Part shown: positions 9,877-32,560 of the stretch, piece after piece
Numbering within the stretch: the first letter of the stretch is position 1
Layout: every line of letters starts with the position of its first letter
Sequence record: DRR723986_11044
DNA length: 63,094 nt
Direction: 5' to 3' (one strand)
The notes under the pieces: generated by a model
The model's database searches: none
What the model was told of the DNA's origin: nothing
The model's input: the letters and a program-made list of their open reading frames with translations, nothing else
Translations under genes and position numbers: made by a program

Positions 9877-9917
9877 TTAGTAAAATAAGTAAACGGCTGC
9901 TCATTCATTCAATACTA

Positions 9918-11882
9918 TCAATTCCTTTCGTAGCCAAGCAGTCTCAATGCATTTACTACAACTACAATGGTAGAACCTTCATGAATCAATACAGCAACTC
10001 CAATAGATGCGAATCCAAAAATTGTAGCAGGTATTAAAAGTCCCACTACACCTAAACTGATCCACAGATTTTGTTTGATAATCCCTTTAGCCTTTCTACT
10101 CAGTCCAATTGCAAAAGGTAATATTTCCAACTTATCAGCCATTAAAGCTATATCGGCAGTCTCCAGAGCTACATCAGACCCTGCTGCCCCCATTGCAATT
10201 CCAACAGTACTAGCTGCCATAGCCGGAGCATCATTCACCCCATCACCTACCATAGCTATCTTGGATTCTGACTGCTTTAATTGCTTGATAGCCTCAACCT
10301 TTTCTTCAGGCAACAGACTTCCTTTTGCCCCTGTCAATCCAACCTCTTGGGCTATTGCATCTGCTACTTTCTGATTGTCCCCGCTGAGCATAATCATCTT
10401 TTTAATCCCAATTTCCTTGAGCGCCGCAAGGGTGGACTTTGCCGCAGCTCTTGGAGTATCCATTAACCCGATGATACCAATATAAGTATCGTTTTTCCTC
10501 ACCAGAATTGTTGTGTTCCCATTGGATTCCAAAGATTCTATTTTGTCGATAATTTCTTGTGAGGGTTTGTTATCATCCAGCGCTTCGTACAAATCCAGAT
10601 TGCCAATATAAATTTTATCTGCTCCCACATTTGCCTTTATGCCCTTGCCAAGAACGGCTTCCAATGAATCCGCCTCTGGGATTTTCTTTCCTTCCATCCT
10701 TTCTTTACCGTCTCTTACCACGGCTTTGGCCAAGGGGTGATCACTTAGCCCTTCCACTGCAACTGCGGTTCCCAGCAACTCGTCTTCTGAAATACTATTC
10801 CATGCGATTACCTCTGTGATTTTTGGTTTTCCCTCTGTTAAAGTTCCCGTTTTATCAAATGCAATTGCGGTTAGAACACCCAAATCTTCCAGTGGTCTTC
10901 CTCCCTTAATCAAAACTCCTTTTTTTGCTGCTCGGGCAACGCCACTCAATACCGCACTAGGTGTTGCAATTGCTAGCGCACATGGACTTGCTGCCACCAA
11001 AACTGCCATTGCGCGATAAAAACTATCACTAAAAGGCTCATCCAAGACCAAAAAGGCAAAGCACAGTAGTACTACCAATACCAGAACCGATGGGACAAAA
11101 TACTTTTCAAATTTATCGGTCAGCAGCTGAGTGGGTGATTTCTGTGCTTTGGCTTCATTGACTAAGGTAATTAACCTGGCAACAGTAGAGTCTTCTGCAA
11201 TTTTCAACACCTTTATTTCCAAAGTGCCGTTTCCGTTGATCGTTCCTGAATATGCCCTGTTTTCCTGAGGCACATTATCTAGGGAAATATTCTGTTCATC
11301 CTTTTCTTTTATAGCTTCCTTGTCCACAGGTATACTTTCTCCAGTAATAGGAGATTGATCCACAGCACTACTTCCCTTTACAATAACCCCATCTGCCGCA
11401 ATTCTGGAATTAGGCTTAACAATGATGATATCATCGACCTCCAACTCTTCAATTCCCACTTCCACCGAACTGCCTTCAGTTTTCTTTAAGGCGGTTTTTG
11501 GTGCAAGAGTTGCAAGTGATTCAATGGACTTATGCGCTTTTCCCATAGCGTAATGTTCCAATGAATGCCCAAGACTAAATAGAAACAGCAACAATGCACC
11601 TTCTGCCCATTCTCCCAGGATCGCAGCACCTATGGCTGCGACCAACATGAGAAAATCAATTTCAAAACCTCCCTTTAATATGGTTTCTATCGCCTCTTTC
11701 GCGGTATAGAAGCCCCCAAAAAAATAGGCTCCTATATACATGGCAAGACTTACCCATTGAGGCACATCTTCTAAAAAACTCAGGCCAAACCCAATTCCCA
11801 AAAGAGCTCCACAGCAAATGGAGAAAATCAATTCACTATTCTTTCCGAATATCCCAGAGTGTTCCACTTTTTCCTGTTCCAT
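9918..11882 (-). CDS. Heavy-metal P1B-4-like ATPase (Co/Zn/Cd/Fe)
   Basis: [22 protein letters not shown] and HEGST motifs; no N-terminal metal-binding domain. Confidence 0.92.
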   Translation of the reverse strand: MEQEKVEHSGIFGKNSELIFSICCGALLGIGFGLSFLEDVPQWVSLAMYIGAYFFGGFYTAKEAIETILKGGFEIDFLMLVAAIGAAILGEWAEGALLLFLFSLGHSLEHYAMGKAHKSIESLATLAPKTALKKTEGSSVEVGIEELEVDDIIIVKPNSRIAADGVIVKGSSAVDQSPITGESIPVDKEAIKEKDEQNISLDNVPQENRAYSGTINGNGTLEIKVLKIAEDSTVARLITLVNEAKAQKSPTQLLTDKFEKYFVPSVLVLVVLLCFAFLVLDEPFSDSFYRAMAVLVAASPCALAIATPSAVLSGVARAAKKGVLIKGGRPLEDLGVLTAIAFDKTGTLTEGKPKITEVIAWNSISEDELLGTAVAVEGLSDHPLAKAVVRDGKERMEGKKIPEADSLEAVLGKGIKANVGADKIYIGNLDLYEALDDNKPSQEIIDKIESLESNGNTTILVRKNDTYIGIIGLMDTPRAAAKSTLAALKEIGIKKMIMLSGDNQKVADAIAQEVGLTGAKGSLLPEEKVEAIKQLKQSESKIAMVGDGVNDAPAMAASTVGIAMGAAGSDVALETADIALMADKLEILPFAIGLSRKAKGIIKQNLWISLGVVGLLIPATIFGFASIGVAVLIHEGSTIVVVVNALRLLGYERN

Positions 11883-13230: not shown

Positions 13231-16200
13231 TTAGTTGATACCCGATAAGAATTCGATTTGAATAAGTGTTTGATTGGATTTGTCCAGTAAATCCAGATAG
13301 TTGAAGTACACATTCAAGCTTCTATTGAGTCCTTGTGTGTATTCCACATAGCCAATTTCACCACTTTGGAAACCTCTCTGGGATTGTTTTAGGATAAGCT
13401 CTGCTTGAGGAAGAGCACTATCTTCATAAAAATCCAAACTGGTCTGGAATTTTTGGTACTCGAGAAGTAAAGAGGTGAATCGGTTTTCGAGCTCATTGGT
13501 GAATGCTGTTTCTTGTTCCTCTGCTTCAGCAATCCGAATTGATTTTGATTTAATAATCGCTGATTGTGACTTCAAACTGAAAATAGGAATGGCTAAACCC
13601 ACCTGAAATCCATCAAAGCGGTCTTTTGAGCTGTAAACTACAGGGTCTCCAGACATGGTTTGACCTGGCCCATTGAAGGACTGATTAAAATACCCTAGTT
13701 TGATGTCCGGCATCAACCGAGATTTTTCGACTGACTTTTCCTTTTCTGCAATGGCAATTTGCTGCTGAACCCAGGCTAATGTAGGGTTGTCGGCGATACT
13801 ATTCTGGTCCAGAGAAAGCTGAGGTGAATTTTCCTTCAATTCTCCCATTTCAGGCTCAATCGTAACTTCAGCATTGATAAGCATCCTCAACCGTTTGGTA
13901 TTGATCTCCACATCGGCATTGTTCTGAGCTATCATAGCCTGGATCTCAGCCACCTGGGTCTCTGCGGTTGCCTTTTCCAAAAGATTGGTTTCACCAGACT
14001 CAAACCTCAAGGAAGCTGCAGATGCAAACCGGTCATAAATACTGTCTTGCCTGGCAAGTAATTTCCCTTTTTCCCTTGCAGTCCACAACGCATACCAAGT
14101 GGATTTCACGGATCTGATCAATTCATTTTTACTCATCTCCACTGCCAACTCACCAGAAACTATTTTAGATTCAGCCAATCCATTTTGTCGGCTATAGGTG
14201 GTCGGAAACTCAAAAGTCTGGGAAACCGAAAACCGGCTGTCGTTGGTGAAGGCACTGTTTGTCTGGCCATATTCCATGTCCACAGCTGTTTTCCCAATAT
14301 TCCAGCTTGCCCCTTTTAATGCCCGCTGTTGTTCCAATCTAAGTCCTTCAGCTTTGACACTTGGATTGTTTTCCAAAGCAAGTTCTATTGCCTGATCCAG
14401 GGAGGTAACATGCATTGGAGTTTGTGCATAGGAAGATAAATTTCCTAAGGCCAAGAATCCAATCACCAGTAACCCTACAGTGCCTTTGGGTCTTCTCAAA
14501 CCTCTTTCGAAATAATAGTAAAATATAGGTAAGACGACCAAAGTCAGGATGGTTGCCGTAATCAGTCCCCCGATCACCACGGTAGCCAGAGGTTTTTGAA
14601 CTTCCGCTCCACTTGAAGATGAAAGAGCCATTGGCAAAAAGCCCAAAGATGCCACGGAAGCAGTCATAATTACAGGTCTTAACCGGGTTCTAGTTCCCGA
14701 ATAGATCCTTTCAAATATGTCGGTGACCCCTTCCTTTTTCAGGTGGTTAAATTCAGCAATCAGAACTATACCATTAAGTACTGCTACGCCAAACAGAGCA
14801 ATAAACCCGATTCCTGCAGATATACTAAAAGGCATTCCCCGTAAGGTCAAAGCGAAAATCCCTCCGATGGCGGAAAGAGGGATAGCCGTAAAGATCAAAA
14901 TACTCTGTTTGATAGAACCGAATGTGAAGAACAGCAAGACAAAAATCAATAACAAAGCCAACGGAACTGCAATCCCCAGTCTGGCTTTTGCTTCAACCAA
15001 ATTTTCGAATTGGCCTCCGAATGTCACAAAATAACCCGTTTCAAATGTTACAGCATTTTCAATTTTGGACTCTATTTCATTAACTATGCTTTCTACATCC
15101 CGATTTCTCACATTGAATGCGACTACAATTCTCCGCTGGGTATCATCCCGCTGGATTTGATAGGGGCCTTCTTTTACTGAAACTTCAGCTACTTGGTATA
15201 GCGGGATCTGCTCTCCGTTAGCCCGGGCGATAAAAAGATTCTGAACATCCTCAATATCATTTCTTTTAGTCTGATCGAGTCTTATTACCAGATCAAACCG
15301 TTTTTCCCCCTCATAAACCTTCCCGGCTGAAGCACCTGCAAATGCTGCCTGTATAGACCGATTCACTTCTTTTATACTTAGTCCATATTTAGCCAGTTGA
15401 GCCCTTTTGTAATCAATGACTATCTGTGGCACTCCCGTCACTTCCTCTATATAAATATCTTCCGCTCCTTCTACACCTCGTGCTATCTGTCCTATCTGGT
15501 TGGCGTATTCAGATAGTTTTTCAAGGTCTTCTCCATAAATTTTGACAGCCACATCCTGACGCACCCCAGACATTAATTCATTGAAGCGCATTTGTATGGG
15601 TTGTTGAAATCCAAAGTTGACCCCTGGCAAAACTTCCAAAGCTTCAGACATCTTATTTGCCAAATCTTCCCTGTTGGTAGCTGAAGTCCACTCACTTTTA
15701 TCCTTTAAGACAATCATCATATCCGCAGCTTCAACTGGCATGGGATCCGTTGGAATTTCACCTGCCCCGATTTTAGATACAACTTCCACTACCTCTGGAA
15801 ATTGGTCCAAAAGAATCTTCTCTGCCTGGGTTGTAGCCTTCATGGTATTCTGAAGGGAAGAACCAGTGACCACCCGCGTTTCCACAGCAAAATCCCCCTC
15901 TTCCAGAGTAGGTATAAATTCTCCACCCATACGGGAAAAAACCCAACCTGAAACAATCAATAAAACCAAGGCTACACTAATGACTATTCCCCTATGATGC
16001 ATAGCCCATCGAATGGAAGGGTCGTAGAAGCGATGGAAAAATCCCATGATTTTATCAGAAATATTAGGCTTGTCACTGATCTTCTTGCTTAGAAAAAGTG
16101 CAGAGATCATGGGCACGTAAGTAAGCGAGAGTATAAATGCACCAAGAATAGCAAAAGCCACTGTTTGCGCCATTGGTCTGAACATCTTACCCTCAGTTCC

Positions 16201-17601
16201 AACCAATGCTAAAATTGGTAGATATACGATAAGAATTATAATCTCCCCAAACGCAGCTGAATTTCGGATTTTACTTGCAGAAAGAAACACCTCTTCGTCC
16301 ATCTCCAGCTGTGTCAGCTTTGTTTTCCTTTTCACCAAACCTAAATGATGCATGGTTGCCTCAACTATAATGACGGCTCCATCTACAATTAATCCAAAAT
16401 CAATTGCCCCTAAACTCATCAGGTTACCAGACACCCCGAATAGATTCATGAGTGAGAAAGCAAAAAGCAGGGCAAGTGGAATTACCGAAGCCACTATCAG
16501 CCCTGCTCTCAAATTGCCAAGCAAAAGCAGCAAAACAAAAATGACAATCAAGGCGCCCTCAATCAGATTTTTACTAACTGTGCCAATGGCATTGTCCACA
16601 AGTTTGGATCGATCCAAAAAAGGCTCTAAAGTCACCCCTTCGGGCAATGTTTCTTTAATTTCTTCGATTTTTGATTTGACGTTATCAATAACCTCTGCCG
16701 AATTTTCACCTTTCAGCATCATTACAATCGCACTGACTACTTCACCTTCACCATTCCTGGTGGTAGACCCATAGCGCACAGCATTACCAAGCTGTACTTT
16801 TGCGACATCTTTAATGAGAACTGGAATCCCATTTTCATTTACCCGTACGGGGATATTATTGATATCCTCAAAAGAACCTACCAAGCCTTCACTTCGAATA
16901 AATAAAGCAGTTAGATCCTTCTCAATATAGGCTCCACCGGTATTTTCATTATTATCTTCAAGCGCCTGGAAAATATCAGCAATTGATACATTCAAAGATT
17001 TGAGCCGATCAGGCTCTATGGCGATTTCATATTGTTTGAGATACCCTCCAAAGCTGCTCACATCAGCTACCCCTGGCGTACCAAGTAGCTGCCTTCTGAC
17101 TATCCAATCCTGAATAGTTCTAAGTTCACGTGCATCATATTTGTCTTCATAGCCAGGTTCTACACCAACTACATATTGGTAAATTTCCCCTAACCCTGTG
17201 GTAATCGGAGCCATCCCCGGAGCTCCTATCCCCGGAGGTATTTGTTCTTTGACTTCGGACATGCGTTCATTTACCTGTTGTCTGGCCCAATAGACATCCA
17301 CATTCTCCTTAAACACAATGGTAACAACTGACAACCCGAAACGCGAAAAGCTTCTGATTTCTTCAATGTCAGGAATAGTGGCCATCGTGATTTCGATGGG
17401 AAATGTGATTAAACGCTCTACTTCTTCAGCCGCCAATGACGGGGAAGTAGTGATTACTTGTACTTGATTATTGGTAATATCAGGAACTGCATCAATGGGA
17501 AGTTGGGTAAGTGAATACCCGCCCACAATGACTAATCCTATGGTAAGTAGCCCGATTATCAGTTTATTTTTAACTGAGAACCGGATTATATTATCCAGCA
17601 T
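13231..17601 (-). CDS. czcA: CusA/CzcA heavy-metal RND pump fused to a C-terminal TolC-like outer-membrane factor
   Basis: LPIDAVPDITNNQVQ, GAIDFGLIVDGAVIIVE and RLRPVIMTA motifs, then about 400 aa of OMF-like sequence (LDQAIELALENNP, RFESGETNLLE). Confidence 0.93.
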   Translation of the reverse strand: MLDNIIRFSVKNKLIIGLLTIGLVIVGGYSLTQLPIDAVPDITNNQVQVITTSPSLAAEEVERLITFPIEITMATIPDIEEIRSFSRFGLSVVTIVFKENVDVYWARQQVNERMSEVKEQIPPGIGAPGMAPITTGLGEIYQYVVGVEPGYEDKYDARELRTIQDWIVRRQLLGTPGVADVSSFGGYLKQYEIAIEPDRLKSLNVSIADIFQALEDNNENTGGAYIEKDLTALFIRSEGLVGSFEDINNIPVRVNENGIPVLIKDVAKVQLGNAVRYGSTTRNGEGEVVSAIVMMLKGENSAEVIDNVKSKIEEIKETLPEGVTLEPFLDRSKLVDNAIGTVSKNLIEGALIVIFVLLLLLGNLRAGLIVASVIPLALLFAFSLMNLFGVSGNLMSLGAIDFGLIVDGAVIIVEATMHHLGLVKRKTKLTQLEMDEEVFLSASKIRNSAAFGEIIILIVYLPILALVGTEGKMFRPMAQTVAFAILGAFILSLTYVPMISALFLSKKISDKPNISDKIMGFFHRFYDPSIRWAMHHRGIVISVALVLLIVSGWVFSRMGGEFIPTLEEGDFAVETRVVTGSSLQNTMKATTQAEKILLDQFPEVVEVVSKIGAGEIPTDPMPVEAADMMIVLKDKSEWTSATNREDLANKMSEALEVLPGVNFGFQQPIQMRFNELMSGVRQDVAVKIYGEDLEKLSEYANQIGQIARGVEGAEDIYIEEVTGVPQIVIDYKRAQLAKYGLSIKEVNRSIQAAFAGASAGKVYEGEKRFDLVIRLDQTKRNDIEDVQNLFIARANGEQIPLYQVAEVSVKEGPYQIQRDDTQRRIVVAFNVRNRDVESIVNEIESKIENAVTFETGYFVTFGGQFENLVEAKARLGIAVPLALLLIFVLLFFTFGSIKQSILIFTAIPLSAIGGIFALTLRGMPFSISAGIGFIALFGVAVLNGIVLIAEFNHLKKEGVTDIFERIYSGTRTRLRPVIMTASVASLGFLPMALSSSSGAEVQKPLATVVIGGLITATILTLVVLPIFYYYFERGLRRPKGTVGLLVIGFLALGNLSSYAQTPMHVTSLDQAIELALENNPSVKAEGLRLEQQRALKGASWNIGKTAVDMEYGQTNSAFTNDSRFSVSQTFEFPTTYSRQNGLAESKIVSGELAVEMSKNELIRSVKSTWYALWTAREKGKLLARQDSIYDRFASAASLRFESGETNLLEKATAETQVAEIQAMIAQNNADVEINTKRLRMLINAEVTIEPEMGELKENSPQLSLDQNSIADNPTLAWVQQQIAIAEKEKSVEKSRLMPDIKLGYFNQSFNGPGQTMSGDPVVYSSKDRFDGFQVGLAIPIFSLKSQSAIIKSKSIRIAEAEEQETAFTNELENRFTSLLLEYQKFQTSLDFYEDSALPQAELILKQSQRGFQSGEIGYVEYTQGLNRSLNVYFNYLDLLDKSNQTLIQIEFLSGIN

Positions 17602-22613: not shown

Positions 22614-23018
22614 TTATACAAATCGATTCATTGACGGAGGGAATGAATCGGTTTGTAAAGGGTAGATCAATCTTTTGCCAAAGCCCTGTTCCGCCGGAAC
22701 AAGGAAGTGGGCTGTGGGATCTTCTTGACTTTTTTCTGTTTTATCAGAGTCTTGAATTTTATACTTACCTCTGTCAATCAGATAAATACTCCATAAAAAT
22801 ATAATCAGCATTCCCAAGATCATCATTGGAATACTCACAAACATCATAAAACCTTCAACCATAGAACTTAAAACTGCTTTGCTATATCTGGAATAATATT
22901 GGAATCCTCCAGGTCCTCGCCGGTAAAACCTCCTACGATTCACCCATACCCTCAACGCAAAGCCTCCTCCCAAAAGACAAATTCCTACTGATACAATAAA
23001 TACTTTTTCCCAAAACAT
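22614..23018 (-). CDS. Small two-TM membrane protein
   Basis: Two hydrophobic segments flanking RRRFYRRGPGG; starts 8 nt after the rteC stop. Confidence 0.65.
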   Translation of the reverse strand: MFWEKVFIVSVGICLLGGGFALRVWVNRRRFYRRGPGGFQYYSRYSKAVLSSMVEGFMMFVSIPMMILGMLIIFLWSIYLIDRGKYKIQDSDKTEKSQEDPTAHFLVPAEQGFGKRLIYPLQTDSFPPSMNRFV

Positions 23019-23026
23019 AATTTGTC

Positions 23027-23866
23027 CTATTGATATCCCATGTCCGTATCATCCATCCGCTTCACCAAGCTTTCCTTCAGACCATCCAAAAAGATTGTTC
23101 TCCCTTTTTTCCTGCCCCTCATGCTCTGGAATGTGCGGTAGAAATTCCCAACCTTTACATGAAAGATTTTCTCCAGAATCGATATGATCATCTTCACATC
23201 ACTCTTTCCGTGATTTACAGAGCCTCTTGAATGCAGCGCATAAGCCAATTCAATCAATGCAGACTTTGAGTCCGTCCATTCATGGTTTGAATTTTTGTCC
23301 CCACTTTTACCTAGCCCCAATTCTAATTTTATTAACTGTTCTTGCATATATTCAATCAGACTTTCATAAGCCATTATTTTGGCCAACTTACTGCTGTTCA
23401 CTGTAGAAAACTCCGGGTCAAAATCAAAGGAATAATCTGGGATAAATGAAACAGGGAGAGAATTTCTTAAAAACAGCTGTTCGTCCTGGTCACACCTATC
23501 CAACTGATGGTAGATATAGAGCTGATGGTTTCTAGCAAAAAAATCCTGAATCTGATCCATTACATGATGATAATACGACTTGATGAGCTCTTTCTTTCCT
23601 ATAGGTCTTCTTGATTCAATGTATGTAAGCTCAGAATAAAATATTAGTTCTTTATAAAATAGAGGTTTGTACTCCTTAAAGAACTTTAACTCCTCGGTAC
23701 TATCAGCAAATTGATATCCCCCCATAAACAATTTAAGTTTGAGTAAAATAGCATGGACAGCTCTTCCACTTTTCTCAGCTTTTTGTATTTCGCTTGAAGT
23801 TTCTTTCGCCACCTCTTTCAGTGACAACTCCATCTCCTCAAAAAGCTTTTCTACAAATGCTTTCAT
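23027..23866 (-). CDS. rteC: RteC domain transcriptional regulator
   Basis: EELKFFKEYKP and WTDSKSALIELAYAL...FYRTF..MRGRK..RT.FLD.L signatures. Confidence 0.9.
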   Translation of the reverse strand: MKAFVEKLFEEMELSLKEVAKETSSEIQKAEKSGRAVHAILLKLKLFMGGYQFADSTEELKFFKEYKPLFYKELIFYSELTYIESRRPIGKKELIKSYYHHVMDQIQDFFARNHQLYIYHQLDRCDQDEQLFLRNSLPVSFIPDYSFDFDPEFSTVNSSKLAKIMAYESLIEYMQEQLIKLELGLGKSGDKNSNHEWTDSKSALIELAYALHSRGSVNHGKSDVKMIISILEKIFHVKVGNFYRTFQSMRGRKKGRTIFLDGLKESLVKRMDDTDMGYQ

Positions 23867-23951
23867 ATCCTCCTTATTTATTTCCAGAACTCTGATTGCC
23901 TCTCAACTCATTCAGTGCCTTTTTTTAATCCTAATACTTAGGGAATGATTA

Positions 23952-24800
23952 CTACTTCCCAGCTTCAAAACTACTCATATAAGCCTCCAGACTTTCTTTG
24001 CACTTGTCGAGAAATACAGTCCTATTTTTCTTACGCGTCTTAATTTCCAGGAAGGTTCTATAATACCCTTGCAGTTCCCTACCGAATACTTCTGCCAGAA
24101 TGGTTGCCAATTCCGTAACACTGGCATTTCCGTAATTTATTGCATTTGAAGTCTTCAGGGCATATACCAATTCCACCAAGTCCGCCTTTTTCCCAGTCCA
24201 AAGCAATTTGGGATTTTTATCCTCATTAACTGGGCTCTTTGGGTCATGTAAGAACAATAATTGATCATGGATATAGCCTGCCAATGAAAGAGTGCCCATG
24301 ATCCTGGCACAATACAAAGTATAGACAGTACAATATCTGGTATCCAGGGTATGCCAGAATAAATTCGGTTTATATACTGGCGCCTGCGCACTTCTTAAGA
24401 AAAAAACCTTGTCCTGGTTCTCTTTTCTCATTAGGAGATAATTGTAAAGGTTCTGGTTGCTTTGTAAGAACTCCTGTACACTCAGCAATTCCTTTTCGTA
24501 GAATTTTCTGATTTCATGTTCCGGCCCAGCCGGTTTGACAGACTCCATATTGAAAAGCTCGGAGAAATAGACAGACTCCCTTAGGAGGTAAGTCATATGG
24601 TGTTTGAAAAATTCTATCTCCTCCGTATCAGACGCAAATTCGTATTTGTCCATGAACAGTTTGATCTTATCCAAAGCCCTATCCACTAGGTGAAAGGCAG
24701 ATTCAAATTGGATGAGCTTGTTTTCTCCATCCATTTTCAAAACCTCCAGATCATTTTTCAGTCTGGAGATTATCTGGTCCGAAAACGCGAGAATGCTCAT
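23952..24800 (-). CDS. rteC: RteC domain transcriptional regulator (second, divergent paralogue)
   Basis: EEIEFFK and WTGKKADLVELVYAL...YYRTF.EIKTRKKNRT.FLD signatures. Confidence 0.88.
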   Translation of the reverse strand: MSILAFSDQIISRLKNDLEVLKMDGENKLIQFESAFHLVDRALDKIKLFMDKYEFASDTEEIEFFKHHMTYLLRESVYFSELFNMESVKPAGPEHEIRKFYEKELLSVQEFLQSNQNLYNYLLMRKENQDKVFFLRSAQAPVYKPNLFWHTLDTRYCTVYTLYCARIMGTLSLAGYIHDQLLFLHDPKSPVNEDKNPKLLWTGKKADLVELVYALKTSNAINYGNASVTELATILAEVFGRELQGYYRTFLEIKTRKKNRTVFLDKCKESLEAYMSSFEAGK

Positions 24801-24823: not shown

Positions 24824-26377
24824 TCAACTCTTCCTGTAGCGTGGAGAAATCGAAAGTGACCAATGCACTGAACCTGCAATCTTGTATTTGATCTGTTTGA
24901 GGTATTTCAGAACACCGCTGTTTTCTGGTCTGTATTCTTCCCTCCATTTCTTATCCATCATCACAAATTCCTCCAATCCTTCCGCATGCAGATTTAAAAC
25001 TTCTTGCTGGGCCTCCTTGAAACTCATTCCTTTATGTTGCATCAACAACGCCACTGCATTCATAAAATCACCTCTATCAGCTTCTTTTTGGTAAGATATC
25101 AGGTCATTGGATAAGTAGATCAGCTTGGCAGCTTGCACACGGAGATCGGATGTATCTTTCCAGTCAGAAGAATCACTTGTAAAATTCTCACCTGATTCAA
25201 AAGCACAAAGGGCCAAGGCTAGATTTCCTCCTGAAAAAGCTGGCCTGATATCCTGGTATTCTTCCCAACTAGGCAGAGTCTTTTTATCCTTAAATTCCGC
25301 TTCAATTTTATTCTTTTGCATATAATTCAGAACCTCAGAAAAAATCAGCCCCTTGAGTTCTTTATTGCCCGAAACCAACACATCGAATTCTGTGGCCAGA
25401 TCACTAAAAGCATTAAGGAAAAGGGATATGCGATCAGGATTAAATCCTAGTGGTTTACCCTCCATGACGTTTACACTCCCGGATAGAAGGTAATTCCAAA
25501 AATCGGCCTTCTGTCCAATATGCAAATCATCCGTCATATCATCCATATAAAACAGCCAGAGGTAGAGCTTGGAAATCCAAACCCCTTTTTCAATATCAAT
25601 TTCCGGATACAGGCAGGAGGACAGGTAGCTGAATTTCTGATTTTTGTAGTAAGCCACCTCTTCCTTACTCCTTAGGATTGAATGAAAGTGAAATGCCCAG
25701 GATGCTGTTTGATCTTCGATGTCAGCAGCATCATTATGCACATATGCCGGAAAAGGATAATGTAAAACTTTTCCAAGTTGACCAATTTTGTCTATTGTTT
25801 TTGCTTCATACGTCTCTTTCTTGATACGAGCAGCAGTAGCATAACTTACCCCTAAGAGGCTTGCCTTTTCCTTATTAGTCAAGTCATATTTGAAAGATGG
25901 AAACTTCTCTTCAATCACCCGAATCTTATCCCGGTAGTTCATCTGGGTAAATGCATACCATTCCACATCAGCATATCGAACTTTCGCTATCTGGGATTTT
26001 GAAAAGTCTGTGAACTCAGGTATTTCCTTCAGCAATAGCGCTTCATTTAGGTAGGAAAGGCTTATGTAAACAGCTTCTCCAAAAGACTTGAAGCGATATT
26101 TACTGGGCACCTGCGTCTGATACGATTCAAAATCCATGAAGACATCCCCTGGAAAATAAAGTCTGGATAGGTTACCCATGTAATACATTCCGACCATTCC
26201 TTCCACCAGGAACCTAGATTCAATTTCCACAGTACCAGCATGGCGAATTGTAGCTTTCCGTTTAGCTGTACCTATTTCCAAAAACTCACCTACTCTTTCA
26301 AAGGCCTGAGTACTTACTTTACCTTCCAGTCCGAAGAGTTTCTTTAAAAATATTGGGTCCAAATCATACAGCTCCAT
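24824..26377 (-). CDS. Fusion: Crp/Fnr-like domain (cNMP-binding fold + HTH) joined to a class I terpene synthase
   Basis: aa 1-187 Crp-like, ending KASLLGVSYATAARIK; aa ~205-517 carry DDMTD (279-283), R378, NDLISYQKE (424-432) and W506..RY(513-514). Confidence 0.85.
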   Translation of the reverse strand: MELYDLDPIFLKKLFGLEGKVSTQAFERVGEFLEIGTAKRKATIRHAGTVEIESRFLVEGMVGMYYMGNLSRLYFPGDVFMDFESYQTQVPSKYRFKSFGEAVYISLSYLNEALLLKEIPEFTDFSKSQIAKVRYADVEWYAFTQMNYRDKIRVIEEKFPSFKYDLTNKEKASLLGVSYATAARIKKETYEAKTIDKIGQLGKVLHYPFPAYVHNDAADIEDQTASWAFHFHSILRSKEEVAYYKNQKFSYLSSCLYPEIDIEKGVWISKLYLWLFYMDDMTDDLHIGQKADFWNYLLSGSVNVMEGKPLGFNPDRISLFLNAFSDLATEFDVLVSGNKELKGLIFSEVLNYMQKNKIEAEFKDKKTLPSWEEYQDIRPAFSGGNLALALCAFESGENFTSDSSDWKDTSDLRVQAAKLIYLSNDLISYQKEADRGDFMNAVALLMQHKGMSFKEAQQEVLNLHAEGLEEFVMMDKKWREEYRPENSGVLKYLKQIKYKIAGSVHWSLSISPRYRKS

Positions 26378-26669
26378 GATGACATCTTTAGTTAGATTTC
26401 ACATTACTTCCATTTACAAAACCCCTTGCCAGAGCCTATTTTAAATTGCCTTTGCAGTTGAAGATCCAACTGTTGAACTTGCTAGTTCTGTTATTACTAA
26501 AAAAACAGTAGTCCAGTTTAAAATCCCGACACCTAAAAACCAAGTAATCAATCACTTATTTTTCAAAACCATTTAAAATTGTATAATTGATACACTTTTT
26601 AAGTTTATCACCCACCTTGTGAATTCTGGATTTTTATAATACCCAACTTTCCATCGACCATTAAAATGA

Positions 26670-27098
26670 ATGGAAAACTCAGAAAAATCAGCTATCCCAA
26701 GCATCCTGCTGATCCTCTTATGGACCTATACTGGAATTGACAAAATCCTACACTGGCAGGACAGCAGAAAAGCATTCCATAACCAGACCTTTCCTGCAGA
26801 GTTGGCAGAAGTACTGGCCTATGCAGTACCGACTATTGAGTTGCTGATTGCCTTACTCCTACTCTTTTCAGTCAGTAGATGGTGGGGATACCTCTCAAGT
26901 ATCCTCCTCCTCACCGTCTTCACCACCTATGTGGGATTGATCTGGGTAGGAGCTTTTCCCAGAGTTCCCTGCAACTGTGCGGGAGTTTTAGAAAGCTTAA
27001 GTTGGAAAGCACATTTCTGGCTTAACAGTGGAATGATTGGAATAAGTATCATCGGACTATACTTCACAAAAAAGCGGAATCCTCAGATCCCGCCTTGA
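26670..27098 (+). CDS. MauE/DoxX family redox-associated membrane protein
   Basis: LWTYTGIDK, P.IEL, four TM segments, VPCNCAGV (CxCxG) and W.AHFWLN motifs. Confidence 0.88.
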   Translation: MENSEKSAIPSILLILLWTYTGIDKILHWQDSRKAFHNQTFPAELAEVLAYAVPTIELLIALLLLFSVSRWWGYLSSILLLTVFTTYVGLIWVGAFPRVPCNCAGVLESLSWKAHFWLNSGMIGISIIGLYFTKKRNPQIPP

Positions 27099-27366
27099 GG
27101 CGTTAAGTTTTTAGTAGGTGATAGCAACTATTTCCTTAAACAATATAAACTAAATATTAATTACACCAGCATCTAAAGAGTAAATAATTAAACACTATCG
27201 CTCTGAAGAATAAAGACTTGTCACTAGGAATTTGAAAAAACGGGGCAGGAAAAGGCATTATCCCACCCCAAAAAATAGCTTAATGAAAATCAACTCAATT
27301 TACCGCATTACCTGTCTCCGAATCTGGAAGTGGAGACTCCAGACTATACTGGGTAGTGCAAGAGGG

Positions 27367-27441
27367 AGATGCCGAAAACCCTTTAAACAGAGTAGGTATT
27401 TTAACCACTTCCGGTAAACAGCATGTAGCTCAATCCGGGAA
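27367..27441 (+). ncRNA. Candidate structured RNA leader (loop-E hairpin) upstream of the peptide gene
   Basis: AGAUGCC(27367-73) pairs with GGUAUUU(27395-401) around GAA/AGUA; a second stem UUCCGG(27409-14)/CCGGGA(27435-40). The G-U pairs favour the + strand. Confidence 0.4.
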
Positions 27442-27490
27442 TCCTAAACGTTTTCCCTGTTTTTGATTTGTTAAAAAACAGGACACAACG

Positions 27491-27775
27491 ATGAATACTT
27501 TAATTAAAAGATTACCTGCTTTTGCATTTGTAATAGCAGCCTTTGCTGCATTTGCATTCAATGCTCCTGTCATAGGCAGCGAACCTACGGCAACTAAAAT
27601 CTGGACCCCAGACACTTCCCAACCTAATGGCTACCGGGATGTCACTATTCAGGTTCAATCCGAGGACTATGAGTGTAATGCCAGTGAAATGGATTGTTTG
27701 GTAGAATTCTCCAACGATAACCCTGCGACTGGCATCCCTAACGTCCTGAGCGAAGGAGAATTCGTAGAATTATAA
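27491..27775 (+). CDS. Small secreted acidic peptide with a C-x6-C pair (DUF6520-like)
   Basis: Ala/Phe-rich signal peptide (LPAFAFVIAAFAAFAF), YECNASEMDC; A-rich translation start and its own terminator. Confidence 0.75.
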   Translation: MNTLIKRLPAFAFVIAAFAAFAFNAPVIGSEPTATKIWTPDTSQPNGYRDVTIQVQSEDYECNASEMDCLVEFSNDNPATGIPNVLSEGEFVEL

Positions 27776-27830: not shown

Positions 27831-29210
27831 TTAAGGATTCTGGATTATTCCACTTCTGCTGATTTCATCCAATGGAATAGGAAATGCATATCTAGGAGAA
27901 TTAGGAGCCAATTCATATCGAATCCCATTCACTTCTCTCACCAAAGTTTCTGTTTCACCTTCCTGATTCAATCTCCTCAAATCCATCCAGCGCAACCCTC
28001 TCCCTATCAACTCTTTTCTCCGCTCTTGCAGAATTCTTTCCAATACCTCTTCTAAGTTCAATTCGGCTAATGGCACCCAAGAATCTGATTGATACCTTAA
28101 GGAAAGCAAGTCATTGAGCATACTTAATGCCTGGTCATCCTCGCCTGTTCTGACCAATGCTTCCGCAGCATTCAGGTACAATTCCCCTACACTGATCCCA
28201 CCAAAATTCTGTGTAGCCCCAGAAAGCTTTCCTGTATAATTAAAATTTCCAGAGGATGTCTCATCAAAAAAAGCAGGTTTTCTTAAATCATTTTCCTCAA
28301 AAAGATCTATCAAGGCTGAATCCACAAATACCTGAGTAGATCTCAAATAGGAATAACTAAATAAGGTGGAGTAAAATATAGTCTCCTCATCAAAGCGTGT
28401 AAAAGGTCTTCTAGCTTCTACATCTATATTATTAAAATCCAGACGATCGGTATAAATCCCCAAAGCTTCTATAGAGGATTTGGCTGCCAATTCATATTGG
28501 AAGGTATTTAGATATACTCTGGAGAGCACTCCTAAAGCTATTGCTTTGGATGGCCTGGTTTTGGGCATATTGTTTTCCGGCAACAATTCCACTGCCCTAG
28601 TCAAATCCGCATCAATTTGATCATAGCTTTCCTGTAGATTAGCTCGCTCCAGCTCCTCATTTACATCTGCAGTGGACTTGAGCACGATTCCTAACAAGGA
28701 CTCATTTCCCCCTGCTTTCTGGTAGGGCATTGCAAATTCCGATACCAATTGCAGGTAAGCATAGCCTCGGTAGAAATAAGCCGAACCAAGCAAGGTTTGG
28801 TAAAACTCACTCTGCTCCCCTTCGAAATCCTCCAATACTTCCAAGGCAACATTAGAATAAAATACCTGCTCGTACAAACTGTTCCAGTCCCCAGAGAATC
28901 CGGATGGATAAGGGTCATCTGACCAGATAAATACCGCCTGCTCAATGGGATTACTTAACGCTGCATATCCTGCATCGGAAATCCAGACCTCCTCGGATGC
29001 AATACTTGGCAAGGTTGCCTGCCCATTGAATACATTCGTATTATCCAGCAGGCTCTGCACATCTGCCAAGGTTTTGGGAACTACCAGGCTTTGATTAGGT
29101 TTGGCATCCAAAAACTCCTCGCAGGACATCAGGCCAAAGAGGCAAAAACAAGACAGCAAAAGTGCCAATCTACCTTTCTTTTGTTTAATCTGTTCTAGTA
29201 TATTTTTCAT
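27831..29210 (-). CDS. susD: RagB/SusD family outer-membrane lipoprotein
   Basis: Lipobox LMSC then EEFLDAKP; AYFYRG, ELYLNAAEA, ERRKEL..RGLRWMDLRR, YAFPIP..E. Confidence 0.93.
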   Translation of the reverse strand: MKNILEQIKQKKGRLALLLSCFCLFGLMSCEEFLDAKPNQSLVVPKTLADVQSLLDNTNVFNGQATLPSIASEEVWISDAGYAALSNPIEQAVFIWSDDPYPSGFSGDWNSLYEQVFYSNVALEVLEDFEGEQSEFYQTLLGSAYFYRGYAYLQLVSEFAMPYQKAGGNESLLGIVLKSTADVNEELERANLQESYDQIDADLTRAVELLPENNMPKTRPSKAIALGVLSRVYLNTFQYELAAKSSIEALGIYTDRLDFNNIDVEARRPFTRFDEETIFYSTLFSYSYLRSTQVFVDSALIDLFEENDLRKPAFFDETSSGNFNYTGKLSGATQNFGGISVGELYLNAAEALVRTGEDDQALSMLNDLLSLRYQSDSWVPLAELNLEEVLERILQERRKELIGRGLRWMDLRRLNQEGETETLVREVNGIRYELAPNSPRYAFPIPLDEISRSGIIQNP

Positions 29211-29344
29211 TTGATTTATAATTAATGAGTTAAAAAGGGGCCCGGGAATTTCTCCCCGGACAGGTCTAAAAGAGGAACCACCCTCACCTTATGAAGAAAT
29301 TTGATGACCGGCTCCCTTTTAATTCTTGATGATCTTTTTGCTGG

Positions 29345-32300
29345 TTAGAAATCCAGTTGAACTCCCACTGCGATACTTTTTCTAGGCTTGAAAGTTCCAA
29401 AATCAGGATCCCAGTCTGTATCCGTGGCTTTCCAGATAATGCCTAGATTATTGGCATATAAATAGAATTCAGCATTGTTGAAAATCCCTGCTCGCTTGGA
29501 TGTGGTAGAAATTTTATAACCCAGCCGGATATCCTGTAAGCGGATATGATCCCCTTTTTCTACCAAGACCGAACTGCTTCTGTAAAACTGATCCCGAAAT
29601 GCATCCCTCGCCTCAGGCGTGGAAGGCACCTGTGTAATCAATTCATCCCCTACTTCCTGCCAGCGAAGGGCATAATCAGAATGACCTCCCCGACCCTGCA
29701 AAATGGATTCATATTGCACCGAAGATCTTCGGAAGTAATACCCGAAGCGATAGGATATATTTGCCGAAAGACTAAAGCCCTGAAAGCTGAGGCTATTCCT
29801 GAATGAGCCAAAAATTGTGGGACGTGCCGGACCGTGATAAACTAGCGATTCCAATGTGGCTCCGTTGATGATCTCCCGATATTCTTCACTGGCTTCTCCA
29901 TCCAGCAAACCCACAGGATCTCCTGTTTCATGATTCAATCCCATCCATGGCAAGGAATAAACCCCAAAAAGAGGTCTTCCTTCGATTGGAAAATAGGTTC
30001 CTCCCAAGCCTGTTATACCATAGTTCAGCAGGTTGTTCACATTGATCTCATCTTCGTAGGAAGTGACTTTTTCCTTGATTCCACTAAGCAATAGCACCGA
30101 CGACCAGGTAAATTTCCCTTTCAGATTGACCGTTTCCAGTGAGAGATCAAAACCTTTGGTTTGCGTGGCAGCATTGTTCCCTGAGAATGATGTGATTCCG
30201 GTGGAAGGTGCATAAGGAATTGTGCCGATCAGTTCCAAGCCTTCCTTTTTGTAAAATTCAAAGGTGCCTTTTATCCTACCTGACCTGTTTTCCCAGTCGA
30301 GACCCAGATTCAGAATCTTGATCCGCTCCCAGCGTAGATTTTCATTTGGGGGATTTACGATGATGGAATAAGGAATCTGGGTAATAGGATTAAATGTAGT
30401 CGAACGCGCCGTGGTGAAAGCAGTCAGGCTACGGTCAACGTTTCCATTGTATCCATAGGAAGCTCGGAGCTTCATAAACGGCATCCAAGCCCAGTTATAA
30501 AACTTTTCTTCGCTCAGCGTCCATCCCAATCCGGCAGACCAGAGCGGAACAGATTTTTGATTGGCAGCGACGCCAAAAAGATTGGAAGCATCTTTTCTTG
30601 CACTCAAGGTGAGCAGGTATCGGTCTTGATACACTAGCGAAGCATTGGCAAAACCTGAATAGAATCGATCACGCAGCAAACTGATTCCTTCAGTGTTGGG
30701 AATCCGTGCCGTAGCAAAAGGATTGGTGGACAAGGGGAACAAACTCACATAATCCACCACCTGTGTGGTAGCCAATTCAGGATTATATCCGTAATATCTC
30801 CCTGAAAAGGAGTTGGACTCCAAGGCTTTGACTTCCGTTCCTGCCAGCACATTTAATTTCCATCCCTGTTCCCAATCTTTTTCATAATTGGCTTGCAGCC
30901 TACCTGAATGGGAATAAGCTCTAGAATTCGAGTAGTTATAAATGCCTCCCTTTGGTATGGCATAAGACAAGTCTCCCTCTTCGGCTACTTGGGTAAATTG
31001 ATTAATCAAATTCCGGGCATCATAGCTATTATCCTGATACTGGCGTTCTGACATGCCTGTATTCTGCCAATATTGATACAAGCCCTGAACTGATAAGCCT
31101 GGAAGCACCTCATAAGCCAATCCCAAATTTACCCGCCAATCATCCCGCAGGGAAGTAGTGTTAGATCTTCCTTTTTCCTCCAAAGGAATAAAAGACCAGT
31201 CCAATAAGCCCAAGCTTTCCATTTCCTCCTTAAACCCCTTTCTGTAGTCCCGGTTTAACGCTAAGGGATTTCCTGATTCATCTGCCAGCCTTGCATAGGG
31301 ATAGGTTCCTGCATAGCTGCTGAAGGTAATATCATCGGGAGCCATATGAGCATCCGTATCCCTGCTTTTCACCCCATAAAAAGCAGTCTGAACCTTCAGT
31401 TTATCCGAAAAGACAGAAAAATCATTTTTCAGGGAAAAGGTAATCCGATTGGAAGCATCCCCAATGATTTCTGGTCGAATGTCGTCATAACCTAAAGAAA
31501 TCCGGTAGGTATGGTAATTTCCTCCTCCCGCTATTCCAAGATTGTATTGCTGATTGAGTTGGGGCCTATAGATGTATTCATTCAGATTATTTCTCAGATC
31601 ATAACTTCGGAATGCTGCGATCCTTGCATCCGCTTCCGATGATGAGATCAATCCATCCCGTTTTGCGATTAAGGTTTCCACGACCGGACTTAATACCTCA
31701 TTTCCAAAATCAGACTCCAAGGCAGTATAAAAGCCCTGTCCGAAGAGCATTTCCTCCACATCGATGTAATCATCTACTCCTAGGTTTGGAGCAAGAAAAG
31801 GATCGGTAGGTTGAATCCAGTTGGCATTACCTGTAAAACTGACTCGGGTGGCTTGGTTGCTCTTTCCTGATTTGGTGGTAATAACGATCACCCCATTTCC
31901 TGCACGGGCACCCCAGATTGAAGCCGCAGCAGCATCCCTCAAGACGGTAATACTGGAAACGTCATTCGGGTTGATATCCTCCAGATTTCCATCATAGGGA
32001 AAATTATCTATCACAATCAAAGGCTGGGAAAACCTTCCCAAGGTACTTCTGCCTCGGATGGAAATGGGATCTCTCCCCACGTCACCGGTACGGTTCAGGA
32101 TCAGACCGGAAGTAACATCTTCCAATCGATCAATCAGGTTGGTACTTACCCTACGATCCACCAGTTCCTCATTCAAGGAAACAAAAGAACCTGAAGCCCT
32201 GCTCTTCGGAATCTCCTGATAACCAGTGGCGAGTACCTCTACGCCTCCCAACTCAAAGTCTTCTGGCGCCAAAAGGATAGTTAACTGCTCCGAAAGAGGA

Positions 32301-32560
32301 ACTTCCATTTCAATTTCCCGGACAGTATAACCCAGGTAGCTAATCCGAAGCGTATAGGTTCCTGCGTCCAACTCAAAACGGAATACACCTTCCTCATTGG
32401 TAATTTTCCCCGTTCCGCTTTCCAGAACACGCACCGAAGCTCCGATCAATGCTTCACCGGTAGTTTGATCCTGCACCCTTCCTACAACTTGCAGATTCTG
32501 GGCGCATAGATCCATAGAAGAAAAGGCCAAAACAAAAATTAGAATCAGTAGATTTTTCAT
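29345..32560 (-). CDS. susC: SusC/RagA family TonB-dependent outer-membrane transporter
   Basis: Carboxypeptidase-like N-domain; plug INPNDVSSITVLRDAAAASIWGARAGNGVIVITTK; LRWE; C-terminal F. Confidence 0.95.
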   Translation of the reverse strand: MKNLLILIFVLAFSSMDLCAQNLQVVGRVQDQTTGEALIGASVRVLESGTGKITNEEGVFRFELDAGTYTLRISYLGYTVREIEMEVPLSEQLTILLAPEDFELGGVEVLATGYQEIPKSRASGSFVSLNEELVDRRVSTNLIDRLEDVTSGLILNRTGDVGRDPISIRGRSTLGRFSQPLIVIDNFPYDGNLEDINPNDVSSITVLRDAAAASIWGARAGNGVIVITTKSGKSNQATRVSFTGNANWIQPTDPFLAPNLGVDDYIDVEEMLFGQGFYTALESDFGNEVLSPVVETLIAKRDGLISSSEADARIAAFRSYDLRNNLNEYIYRPQLNQQYNLGIAGGGNYHTYRISLGYDDIRPEIIGDASNRITFSLKNDFSVFSDKLKVQTAFYGVKSRDTDAHMAPDDITFSSYAGTYPYARLADESGNPLALNRDYRKGFKEEMESLGLLDWSFIPLEEKGRSNTTSLRDDWRVNLGLAYEVLPGLSVQGLYQYWQNTGMSERQYQDNSYDARNLINQFTQVAEEGDLSYAIPKGGIYNYSNSRAYSHSGRLQANYEKDWEQGWKLNVLAGTEVKALESNSFSGRYYGYNPELATTQVVDYVSLFPLSTNPFATARIPNTEGISLLRDRFYSGFANASLVYQDRYLLTLSARKDASNLFGVAANQKSVPLWSAGLGWTLSEEKFYNWAWMPFMKLRASYGYNGNVDRSLTAFTTARSTTFNPITQIPYSIIVNPPNENLRWERIKILNLGLDWENRSGRIKGTFEFYKKEGLELIGTIPYAPSTGITSFSGNNAATQTKGFDLSLETVNLKGKFTWSSVLLLSGIKEKVTSYEDEINVNNLLNYGITGLGGTYFPIEGRPLFGVYSLPWMGLNHETGDPVGLLDGEASEEYREIINGATLESLVYHGPARPTIFGSFRNSLSFQGFSLSANISYRFGYYFRRSSVQYESILQGRGGHSDYALRWQEVGDELITQVPSTPEARDAFRDQFYRSSSVLVEKGDHIRLQDIRLGYKISTTSKRAGIFNNAEFYLYANNLGIIWKATDTDWDPDFGTFKPRKSIAVGVQLDF

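Follow-up and report, generated by a model that had tools for sequence, protein, structure and literature searches.

Bacterial proteins that carry a DNA-binding domain and an enzyme or an enzyme-fold domain in one chain are known. In PutA, whose DNA-binding part is an RHH domain, and in BirA and the MocR-type regulator BioL (PMC12704756), this arrangement lets metabolic state feed back on transcription. Terpene synthases have been linked to cyclic nucleotide monophosphate (cNMP) binding folds in another way, through the family 2B encapsulin shells (EshA/Sg Enc) encoded by 2-methylisoborneol and geosmin synthases, a fold reported not to bind cAMP (PMC11550324, PMC13739066). Among the synthases of the Bacteroidota, BpCAS of Belliella pelovolcani (UniProt A0A1N7KE47), from a study in which 334 synthases were screened, makes cembrene A and (+)-nephthenol in Escherichia coli that overproduces geranylgeranyl diphosphate (PMC12009305). 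On the conjugative element CTnDOT, rteC is turned on by a regulator encoded upstream, and RteC activates the excision operon (PMC3809561). Here we describe a gene that can be compared with these systems. It lies at 24824..26377 on the minus strand of a 63,094-nucleotide (nt) stretch of DNA from sequence record DRR723986_11044, which as a whole is called the window below, and it encodes a Crp/Fnr-like regulator module fused in frame to a class I terpene synthase. To our knowledge, bacterial terpene synthases are nearly always stand-alone, and the role and regulation of their products are mostly unknown.

The original prediction, made from the letters alone, had read this gene as one uninterrupted open reading frame (ORF) of 517 amino acids (aa) with no methionine at the junction. 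Both points were borne out. The methionines fall at residues 1, 61, 64, 67, 81, 146 and 278 and then at later positions, and between residues 176 and 224 the only in-frame ATG, GTG or TTG is a GTG at 213, within the synthase domain. The quoted helix-turn-helix (HTH), ASLLGVSYATAARIKK, was located at residues 172-187, and the synthase residues that had been named (P258, DDMTD at 279-283, NDLISYQKE at 424-432, N440, W506 and R513-Y514) are all in place, with R378 46 residues ahead of N424 and the set of catalytic motifs complete. The parts of the gene are:

24824..26377, minus strand: whole fusion ORF, 517 aa plus stop codon, ATG start, from the ORF listing
25817..26377, minus strand: N-terminal Crp/Fnr-like module, aa 1-187, with effector barrel, long helix and minimal HTH, from profile matches
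25817..25885, minus strand: HTH, aa 165-187 (DLTNKEKASLLGVSYATAARIKK), from alignment to the HTH of CRP
25760..25816, minus strand: linker of 19 aa (188-206), variable, lacking an in-frame start codon and unconserved in alignments A1 and A3
24827..25759, minus strand: class I terpene synthase domain, aa 207-517, from Pfam PF19086 and alignment to solved synthases
25529..25543, minus strand: DDMTD metal-binding motif, aa 279-283, with D279, D280 and D283 invariant in A1
25244..25246, minus strand: R378 at the diphosphate-sensor position, Arg also in T-muurolol synthase and BpCAS
25082..25108, minus strand: NDLISYQKE, the NSE triad, aa 424-432, with N424, S428 and E432 invariant in A1
24836..24841, minus strand: C-terminal RY pair, aa 513-514, invariant in A1

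The fusion recurs in other genomes. A word-index search recovered 14 further full-length clusters, which are 517-522 aa long and 43-85% identical, with 99-100% coverage. In an exhaustive profile search 1992 proteins matched at E<=1e-3, and the 150 matches listed include 15 full-length two-domain representatives (50% identity clusters) of 509-527 aa, two truncated forms (456 and 394 aa) and one 472-aa form, followed by synthase-only proteins of ~310 aa and a few stand-alone relatives of the N-terminal domain. The sources name Algoriphagus, Litoribacter, Belliella, Mongoliitalea, Echinicola, Cecembia and Arthrospiribacter for the fusion family. Homologues are usually annotated as 'terpene synthase family protein' and occasionally as 'CRP-like cAMP-binding protein'. 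In a genome sample that spanned the phylum the family was matched in 3 of 401 genomes, all of one genus; in a sample of Cyclobacteriaceae it was matched in 24 of 301, with a full-length fused frame in 17 of those. In total we compared 45 related loci, 33 fused and 12 in which each half has a gene of its own, both on one strand; 15 of the 45 are named loci from a genome scan (14 from Algoriphagus and one from a Flavobacteriales metagenome-assembled genome) and 30 were fetched from other genomes.

Some of the split loci show how an artefact could arise, because gaps or overlaps of a few bases separate their two genes and a single insertion or deletion could join them. A sequencing or assembly error, or a recent frameshift, that fused two adjoining genes is nevertheless excluded for practical purposes, and we give it a negligible chance. 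The 33 fused loci besides the window come from many assemblies, and the fused homologues of the word-index and profile searches are, apart from fragments, 509-527 aa long. Contigs of independent runs span the junction ungapped (X3 record 5 over 25488-25876 and X4 record 11 over 25598-26700), with a single gap in the latter at 26428, in the intergenic region. Relatives carry a compensating +1/-1 pair at 25919/25920 and 25925. The ratio of nonsynonymous to synonymous substitution rates (dN/dS) was calculated by the Nei-Gojobori method for the window and 11 Algoriphagus copies (L011, L013, L014 and L015 were omitted for length differences or excess divergence). Of the 66 pairs, 49 could be used for the N-terminal domain (median 0.12), 43 for the linker (median 0.54) and 53 for the synthase domain (median 0.14). 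Purifying selection thus acts on both halves, the linker evolves in frame, and the fused forms make up one well-supported lineage.

The C-terminal half qualifies as a class I terpene synthase by every sequence test applied. Of the Pfam models, Terpene_syn_C_2 (PF19086) covers residues 270-468 with E 6.1e-29 and 101.6 bits, its cut-off being 23.7, and Terpene_synth_C (PF03936) also exceeds its cut-off (E 3.4e-12, 46.6 against 26.3 bits). Solved bacterial synthases can be aligned along the full length of residues 201-517, the best being 9hq2 (E 5.3e-14), followed by T-muurolol synthase, spiroviolene-synthase variants, 10-epi-cubebol synthase and 4okm. In these alignments the aspartate-rich motif, which falls opposite DDxxx(D/E) in the solved enzymes and in BpCAS, is in register, as are the NSE triad ((N/D)DxxSxxxE), the RY pair and the Arg-x-x-x-Ser-Gly segment; R513-Y514 coincide with the pair in T-muurolol synthase and BpCAS. 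A diphosphate-sensor Arg about 46 residues before the NSE triad and a C-terminal RY pair are usual in such enzymes. Every catalytic residue is invariant in the window's clade (alignment A1). Over a wider range, in an alignment of 21 fusion proteins at 19-85% identity (A3), DDxxD, NSE and RY are kept in 18, and R378 is replaced by Lys in four. The product of the synthase is not assignable from these matches, because the NCBIfam product-specific models, which span the whole domain, all score far under their cut-offs (the best, 4-epi-cubebol synthase, at 72.9 against 500 bits).

The assignment of the N-terminal half to the Crp/Fnr superfamily holds, only at profile level. Its 196 N-terminal residues align end to end with Crp-type regulators. 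In a search of the PDB the N-terminal half of the window protein alone reached only 3dn7 (E 0.058). A profile of 12 fusion N-domains (A2) matched the same entry at E 1.2e-8, with 28-188 set against 25-191 of its 194 residues, and so upheld the Crp-like part of the original prediction. With a broader profile (A5) of 39 rows, 25 fusion N-domains and 14 stand-alone relatives, the match rose to E 1.2e-18 and was followed by E. coli CAP chains at E ~2e-12 (27-189 against 14-192, barrel and HTH both covered) and then by many further Crp/Fnr regulators. PF00027 matches the fusion proteins of several relatives weakly (3.4e-6 to 3.9e-3), appears in the precomputed annotation of two homologues, and has its cut-off exceeded by some stand-alone relatives, one at 30.4 bits; HTH_Crp_2 or Crp matches occur in relatives only (L075 at 2.9e-7, L052 at 3.6e-4, L060 at 6.3e-3). 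A word-index search for shorter relatives of the N-domain gave one 252-aa fragment only.

The residues of the module suggest what it may do. In the catabolite regulator CRP, R82 binds the phosphate of cAMP, E72 and S83 contact cAMP, and R185 contacts DNA. When 13 family sequences were aligned with E. coli CRP from the K-12 record, the conserved D82, S92 and R184 of the family fell opposite E72, S83 and R185, whereas the R82 column holds P91 in the window protein and Arg in none of the 13. The conservation of D82 and S92 suggests a functional ligand pocket, and P91 makes a cyclic nucleotide an unlikely ligand; the ligand is probably something else. The gating by cNMPs that the original prediction had entertained is therefore unlikely, the barrel having no counterpart of the CRP phosphate-binding Arg. 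Since the Crp/Fnr superfamily includes members that do not bind cNMPs, this difference does not count against membership. R184 is found in at least 90% of the 39 sequences of A5, and the HTH consensus LLGxSxxTxxR, with R184, is retained by all fused members, down to 19% identity.

The split loci bear on the origin of the architecture. Six of the 12 have an 8-32 nt gap or an 8-14 nt overlap between the halves, three have a spacer of ~70-200 nt, in two the halves are ~1.5 kb apart, and in one the synthase gene starts ~70 nt after a 201-aa regulator. The architecture probably derives from a regulator gene and a synthase gene directly downstream of it, a pair that persists as separate neighbours in split loci, that of BpCAS among them. 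In a careful maximum-likelihood tree of 52 synthase domains (six near-duplicate Algoriphagus loci and L076 omitted), one branch with support 99/99 sets the 27 fused rows apart from the others, of which 13 are split and 12 synthase-only, and a single change is enough in 100% of 200 bootstrap trees. The distribution needs only one fusion or fission event; as the midpoint root serves only for drawing, the tree does not tell fusion from fission. Within the Cyclobacteriaceae the fused form constitutes a single old lineage. A quick tree of 58 N-domains placed the fused N-domains in one clade with the regulators that neighbour split synthases (support 100), and put 12 of 14 extra stand-alone regulators found beside fusions in another.

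Four fused members have lost DDxxD and NSE and keep the HTH. Three of them (P0032-P0034) are the remaining proteins of A3, in which the catalytic motifs are gone and the N-domain with the HTH consensus is retained. The fourth is the 472-aa protein of L076, which hhalign aligns to the family across 459 columns (probability 99.9%, E 5.8e-34), with the aspartate motif replaced, the NSE segment absent and the HTH intact. Where the locus is known (L057 for P0032, L063 for P0034, and L076), the degenerate fusion is the sole Crp-like gene beside MauE. In the synthase tree the degenerate pair is nested among the fused rows, at the end of a branch 2.67 changes per column long, a length which indicates that constraint was altered on that branch and is not a property common to the other members. 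Taken together, the homologues show this to be a genuine, conserved and previously uncharacterised domain architecture with a natural series of split, fused active-type and fused degenerate forms.

The most constant feature around the gene is its divergent partner. A gene for a MauE/DoxX-type membrane protein is divergent from the regulator half in 45 of 45 related loci, including all 30 fetched ones, and in the window it is separated from the fusion by a 292-bp intergenic region. The layout SusC-SusD-MauE/fusion was found with window proteins by tblastn in all 15 named loci, and SusD is present in those 15 and in 27 of the 30 fetched loci, the three misses being contig ends. Downstream of the fusion, 18 of 45 loci have an RteC gene (the 15 named ones together with L060, L062 and L064). 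The constant partner is thus the MauE/DUF6520/SusCD module and not the conjugative element. Of the controls over neighbouring genes that the original prediction had proposed, the divergent mauE partner gained ground in this way, and the rteC link failed to extend beyond the conjugative-element subset. Between its two readings, a ligand-gated synthase and a transcription factor, the latter gains most, given the invariant position of MauE, an HTH kept across 19-85% identity, and the four catalytically degenerate members that retain it.

We favour, at slightly better than even, a natural two-part protein that acts as both regulator and enzyme and controls the divergent module together with its own operon. 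The protein would dimerise through its Crp-type helix and bind the shared intergenic region, from where it would control the mauE-peptide operon and its own operon. As the latter carries two rteC genes here, the fusion would occupy the place that rteB has in CTnDOT. The synthase half would convert a prenyl diphosphate to a terpene, a diterpene being plausible given BpCAS. Because both functions sit on a single chain, a ligand other than a cyclic nucleotide in the barrel pocket, or occupancy of the active site, could alter DNA binding or catalysis.

Several observations weigh against this reading. On its own the window's N-terminal half matched no Pfam cNMP or Crp model, even at E<=10, so that its Crp/Fnr assignment rests on profiles. 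The short family has neither the C-terminal wing of CRP (the beta-hairpin after the recognition helix) nor the ~10 residues that precede the HTH in CRP, and in the window protein a domain of 310 aa is attached directly to the recognition helix; the stand-alone 3dn7-type relatives, which end 3-15 residues past that helix, are likewise wingless. DNA binding by the short subfamily is an assumption, as 3dn7, its solved member, bears a generic name only. Among 40 MauE/regulator intergenic regions scanned for 5-bp inverted repeats with spacers of 0-10, no common palindrome was found beyond close Algoriphagus copies. In 14 of 33 fused loci a hidden Markov model of A5 detected a second, stand-alone Crp-like gene between MauE and the fusion (some rows belonged to the model and so match by construction), and that separate gene could be the true regulator there. 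In the other 19, as in the window, the fusion is the only Crp-like gene beside MauE.

These last two points, the separate regulator and the want of a shared operator, would also be expected if the protein were an enzyme only, its Crp-like half no longer binding DNA and acting instead as the allosteric or dimerising regulatory part of a working terpene synthase; so would the complete catalytic motifs and the conserved D82 and S92 of the pocket. We regard this as unlikely, since it would leave unexplained why the catalytically degenerate members retain the N-domain and its HTH. It also sits poorly with an HTH whose R184 is kept in every fused member, with a dN/dS of 0.12 across the full length of the N-domain, and with the 19 loci that have no other regulator by MauE. 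The degenerate members suggest the opposite extreme, a pure regulator whose synthase fold binds a prenyl diphosphate or a terpene as effector, in the manner of the aminotransferase-like domain of MocR-type proteins, with little or no product made in vivo. Their persistence, as the sole Crp-like gene by MauE wherever a locus is known, speaks for it, and BioL offers a precedent of an HTH with an enzyme-like domain that senses a pathway intermediate (PMC12704756). Yet the catalytic residues are invariant in the window's clade, where the synthase dN/dS is 0.14, the change of constraint is confined to the very long degenerate branch, and the split sister group includes BpCAS, an enzyme shown to be active; for the window protein we hold a pure regulator to be a little less probable still than an enzyme alone.

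A further reading is that the terpene leaves the cell and serves as a signal, which would make the protein a signal synthase fused to its own receptor, like LuxI and LuxR in one chain. A disulfide-bonded secreted DUF6520 protein, matured with the help of MauE, would capture the terpene and hand it to SusC/SusD for re-uptake, and the barrel pocket, which is not of the cNMP type, would sense it and turn on the shared promoters. The idea draws on the invariant gene neighbourhood, seen in 45 of 45 loci, on the conserved barrel pocket and on the position directly upstream of rteC; if it were true, a terpene signal would gate excision and transfer of the conjugative element through rteC. Taken jointly, export, capture, re-uptake and sensing are a speculation to which we attach only a small chance.

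The neighbouring features to which these readings refer are as follows:

26378..26669, no strand: divergent intergenic region, candidate operator/promoter, 292 bp, conserved only among close Algoriphagus copies
26580-26594, intergenic: perfect palindrome TGTATAATTGATACA, overlapping the best promoter-like match
26454-26473, intergenic: 7-N6-7 inverted repeat, from a sequence scan
26670..27098, plus strand: MauE/DoxX-type membrane protein gene, Pfam MauE 4e-31, divergent from the fusion gene
27362..27398, plus strand: DUF805b RNA motif (Rfam RF02914) 5' of the peptide gene, 42.7 bits against a gathering score of 35.6
27491..27775, plus strand: DUF6520 small secreted-looking protein with two invariant Cys, Pfam 3.3e-6 and alignment A7
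27831..32560, minus strand: outer-membrane pair of SusD-like (27831-29210) and SusC-like (29345-32560) genes, convergent on the peptide gene
22614..24800, minus strand: downstream same-strand genes, rteC at 23952-24800, a second rteC at 23027-23866 and a 134-aa ORF at 22614-23018

Neither palindrome of the intergenic region recurs above chance in the window, with 3 matches where 1.9 would be expected for one and 1 where 0.11 would be for the other. Matches to sigma-70-type promoters show no enrichment (16 against 12.9 +/- 3.5), and terminator-like sites number 3 against 4.6.

A thioredoxin-fold gene follows along with the SusD/SusC-like pair. MauE and DUF6520 are conserved as a pair well outside the fusion family (26670-27775 in the window; loci L080-L091): DUF6520 was matched in 16 of 401 sampled Bacteroidota genomes from at least five families, and a MauE homologue lay within 1.5 kb of it in all 12 fetched loci. 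The DUF6520 proteins begin with a signal-like segment that closes with AFAF(T/N)xP, and two Cys spaced 6-8 residues apart are invariant among them. The DUF805b motif, a cis-regulatory candidate, scores above the gathering threshold both in the window and in 5 of the 8 distant loci that were scanned (L057 11317-11352, L053 13655-13690, L062 5914-5948, L014 7006-7040 and L015 6915-6950). It is placed between mauE and the DUF6520 gene, shares their strand, and looks like a constant component of the module. Literature queries returned a single unrelated methods paper for DUF805b, no mention of DUF6520 or PF20130, and only unrelated papers for a broader query on MauE/DoxX/SusC. In 16 of 45 loci (L049, L051-L057, L063, L065-L067, L073-L075 and L077) a 248-aa protein outside any Pfam family is encoded 1-7 kb downstream of the synthase; a DUF5675 protein comes after it and, in some cases, DUF6266 before it. 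The 248-aa protein is found neither in the window nor in the conjugative-element copies. At L052 a second, very divergent stand-alone synthase (9551-10489, plus strand, 312 aa, PF19086 1.6e-8) begins 6 nt after the fusion gene.

Downstream, the first rteC starts 23 nt beyond the fusion stop with no terminator-like site between, and the Pfam RteC matches of the two genes are 2e-55 and 6.9e-68. These tandem paralogues (23027-24800, minus strand) are only ~31-33% identical to each other, and the pair is kept in 13 of 15 named loci. Past them and the 134-aa ORF come mobC, a relaxase and a coupling protein, which mark the window as part of a conjugative element, and then heavy-metal efflux genes; a defence island lies on the other side. 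Within the heavy-metal cargo a 1456-aa ORF (13231-17601, minus strand) pairs a full AcrB/CzcA-type resistance-nodulation-division transporter (Pfam ACR_tran, residues 5-1031) with an outer-membrane efflux protein domain (OEP, residues 1267-1454), an apparent fusion of pump and outer-membrane factor. The defence island (35308-60144) is dense: TIR-domain, DUF1883-TIR and DUF3800 genes lie in among those of a type I restriction-modification system, a caspase-like peptidase adjoins two TIR/ThsB-like genes, and there are an Eco57I/MmeI-like methylase-nuclease and DUF6035/DUF7829. Single genomes hold two or three diverged copies of the whole module (contigs C3, C49 and C9 of G001; L003/L006/L009; L004/L008), which is consistent with several related conjugative elements; the fusion proteins of such genomes are 80-89% identical to that of the window, the C9 copy being much lower.

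That the fusion is conserved provides direct genetic evidence for joint action of a regulator and a terpene synthase. As a natural experimental system the family supplies the split pair, with one enzyme shown to be active, together with fusions that are presumably active and others that are catalytically dead. It also suggests a first function, both for the short Crp-like regulators that are so abundant in the Bacteroidota and for the uncharacterised MauE/DUF6520/SusCD module. The design may tie gene control directly to terpene chemistry, and the copy upstream of rteC may bear on how conjugative elements decide to transfer.

Set against the known systems, the closest characterised relative found for the window synthase is BpCAS (29% identity over 312 aa, E 2e-29), with which DDxxD, RPxxSG, NDxxSYxKE and RY align; at that identity the product of the window enzyme is not inferable from it. 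The BpCAS sequence (P0036) is identical to a split synthase ORF, L078:2877-3815, in a locus that resembles the window in having a Crp-like 192-aa gene 25 nt upstream, a divergent MauE and then SusD and SusC. It differs in that BpCAS is a stand-alone enzyme of 312 aa with the regulator on a separate gene. BpCAS was accordingly rejected as a fused member, and a search with the Belliella baltica fusion gave no B. pelovolcani protein among its 7 matches. For the N-terminal half, the best solved relative is 3dn7, a stand-alone protein of 194 aa named 'cyclic nucleotide binding regulatory protein', which is equally short and stops right past the HTH. E. coli CRP/CAP shares the barrel and HTH at profile level and equivalents of E72, S83 and R185; in the window family the R82 equivalent, the wing and the pre-HTH residues are missing, and in the fused members a synthase follows the recognition helix.

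With CTnDOT the window shares a regulator gene directly upstream of rteC on a Bacteroidota conjugative element. The difference is that RteB of CTnDOT is a two-component response regulator whereas the window gene is a Crp-like/synthase fusion; none like RteB was found among the window ORFs scanned, in an element that extends past the window, and the link between fusion and rteC is, on gene order, positional only. The family 2B encapsulins likewise associate a cNMP-binding-fold domain genetically with a terpene synthase. There the fold is an insertion in the shell that encloses the synthase, and in the window protein it belongs to a Crp-type module that carries an HTH and is joined to the synthase itself. 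Such a system has an HK97-fold shell protein and, on the synthase, a disordered N-terminal cargo-loading domain. The window protein was not assigned to it: its N-terminus is of the Crp type, no encapsulin shell gene was found among the neighbours scanned in the window, and the NCBIfam encapsulin-cargo models match residues 373-515 of the synthase part only, at 44.6 bits against a cut-off of 1200. The original prediction had likened the locus to the cNMP-binding genes beside 2-methylisoborneol synthases, an analogy now outdated, as those neighbours are now described as family 2B encapsulin shell proteins that do not bind cAMP (PMC11550324), with an unrelated architecture.

Its statement that no Crp-HTH::terpene synthase fusion had been characterised agrees with our search, in which no paper describing a terpene synthase fused to a DNA-binding domain, of Crp type or any other, was found, in a literature coverage that leaves out most subscription journals. 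What the window protein shares with PutA, BirA and the MocR-type proteins BioL and GabR is a DNA-binding-type domain together with an enzyme or enzyme-fold domain in a conserved single polypeptide, as in the bifunctional enzyme-regulators, a functional class also called trigger enzymes. Those proteins use another DNA-binding fold and another enzyme, and none has a terpene synthase or a complete Crp-type barrel beside its enzyme; BioL, being MocR-type, was rejected as a Crp-type precedent. By analogy, the nearest concept for the window protein would be a bifunctional enzyme-regulator such as PutA or BirA, or a MocR-type regulator with an enzyme-fold sensor.

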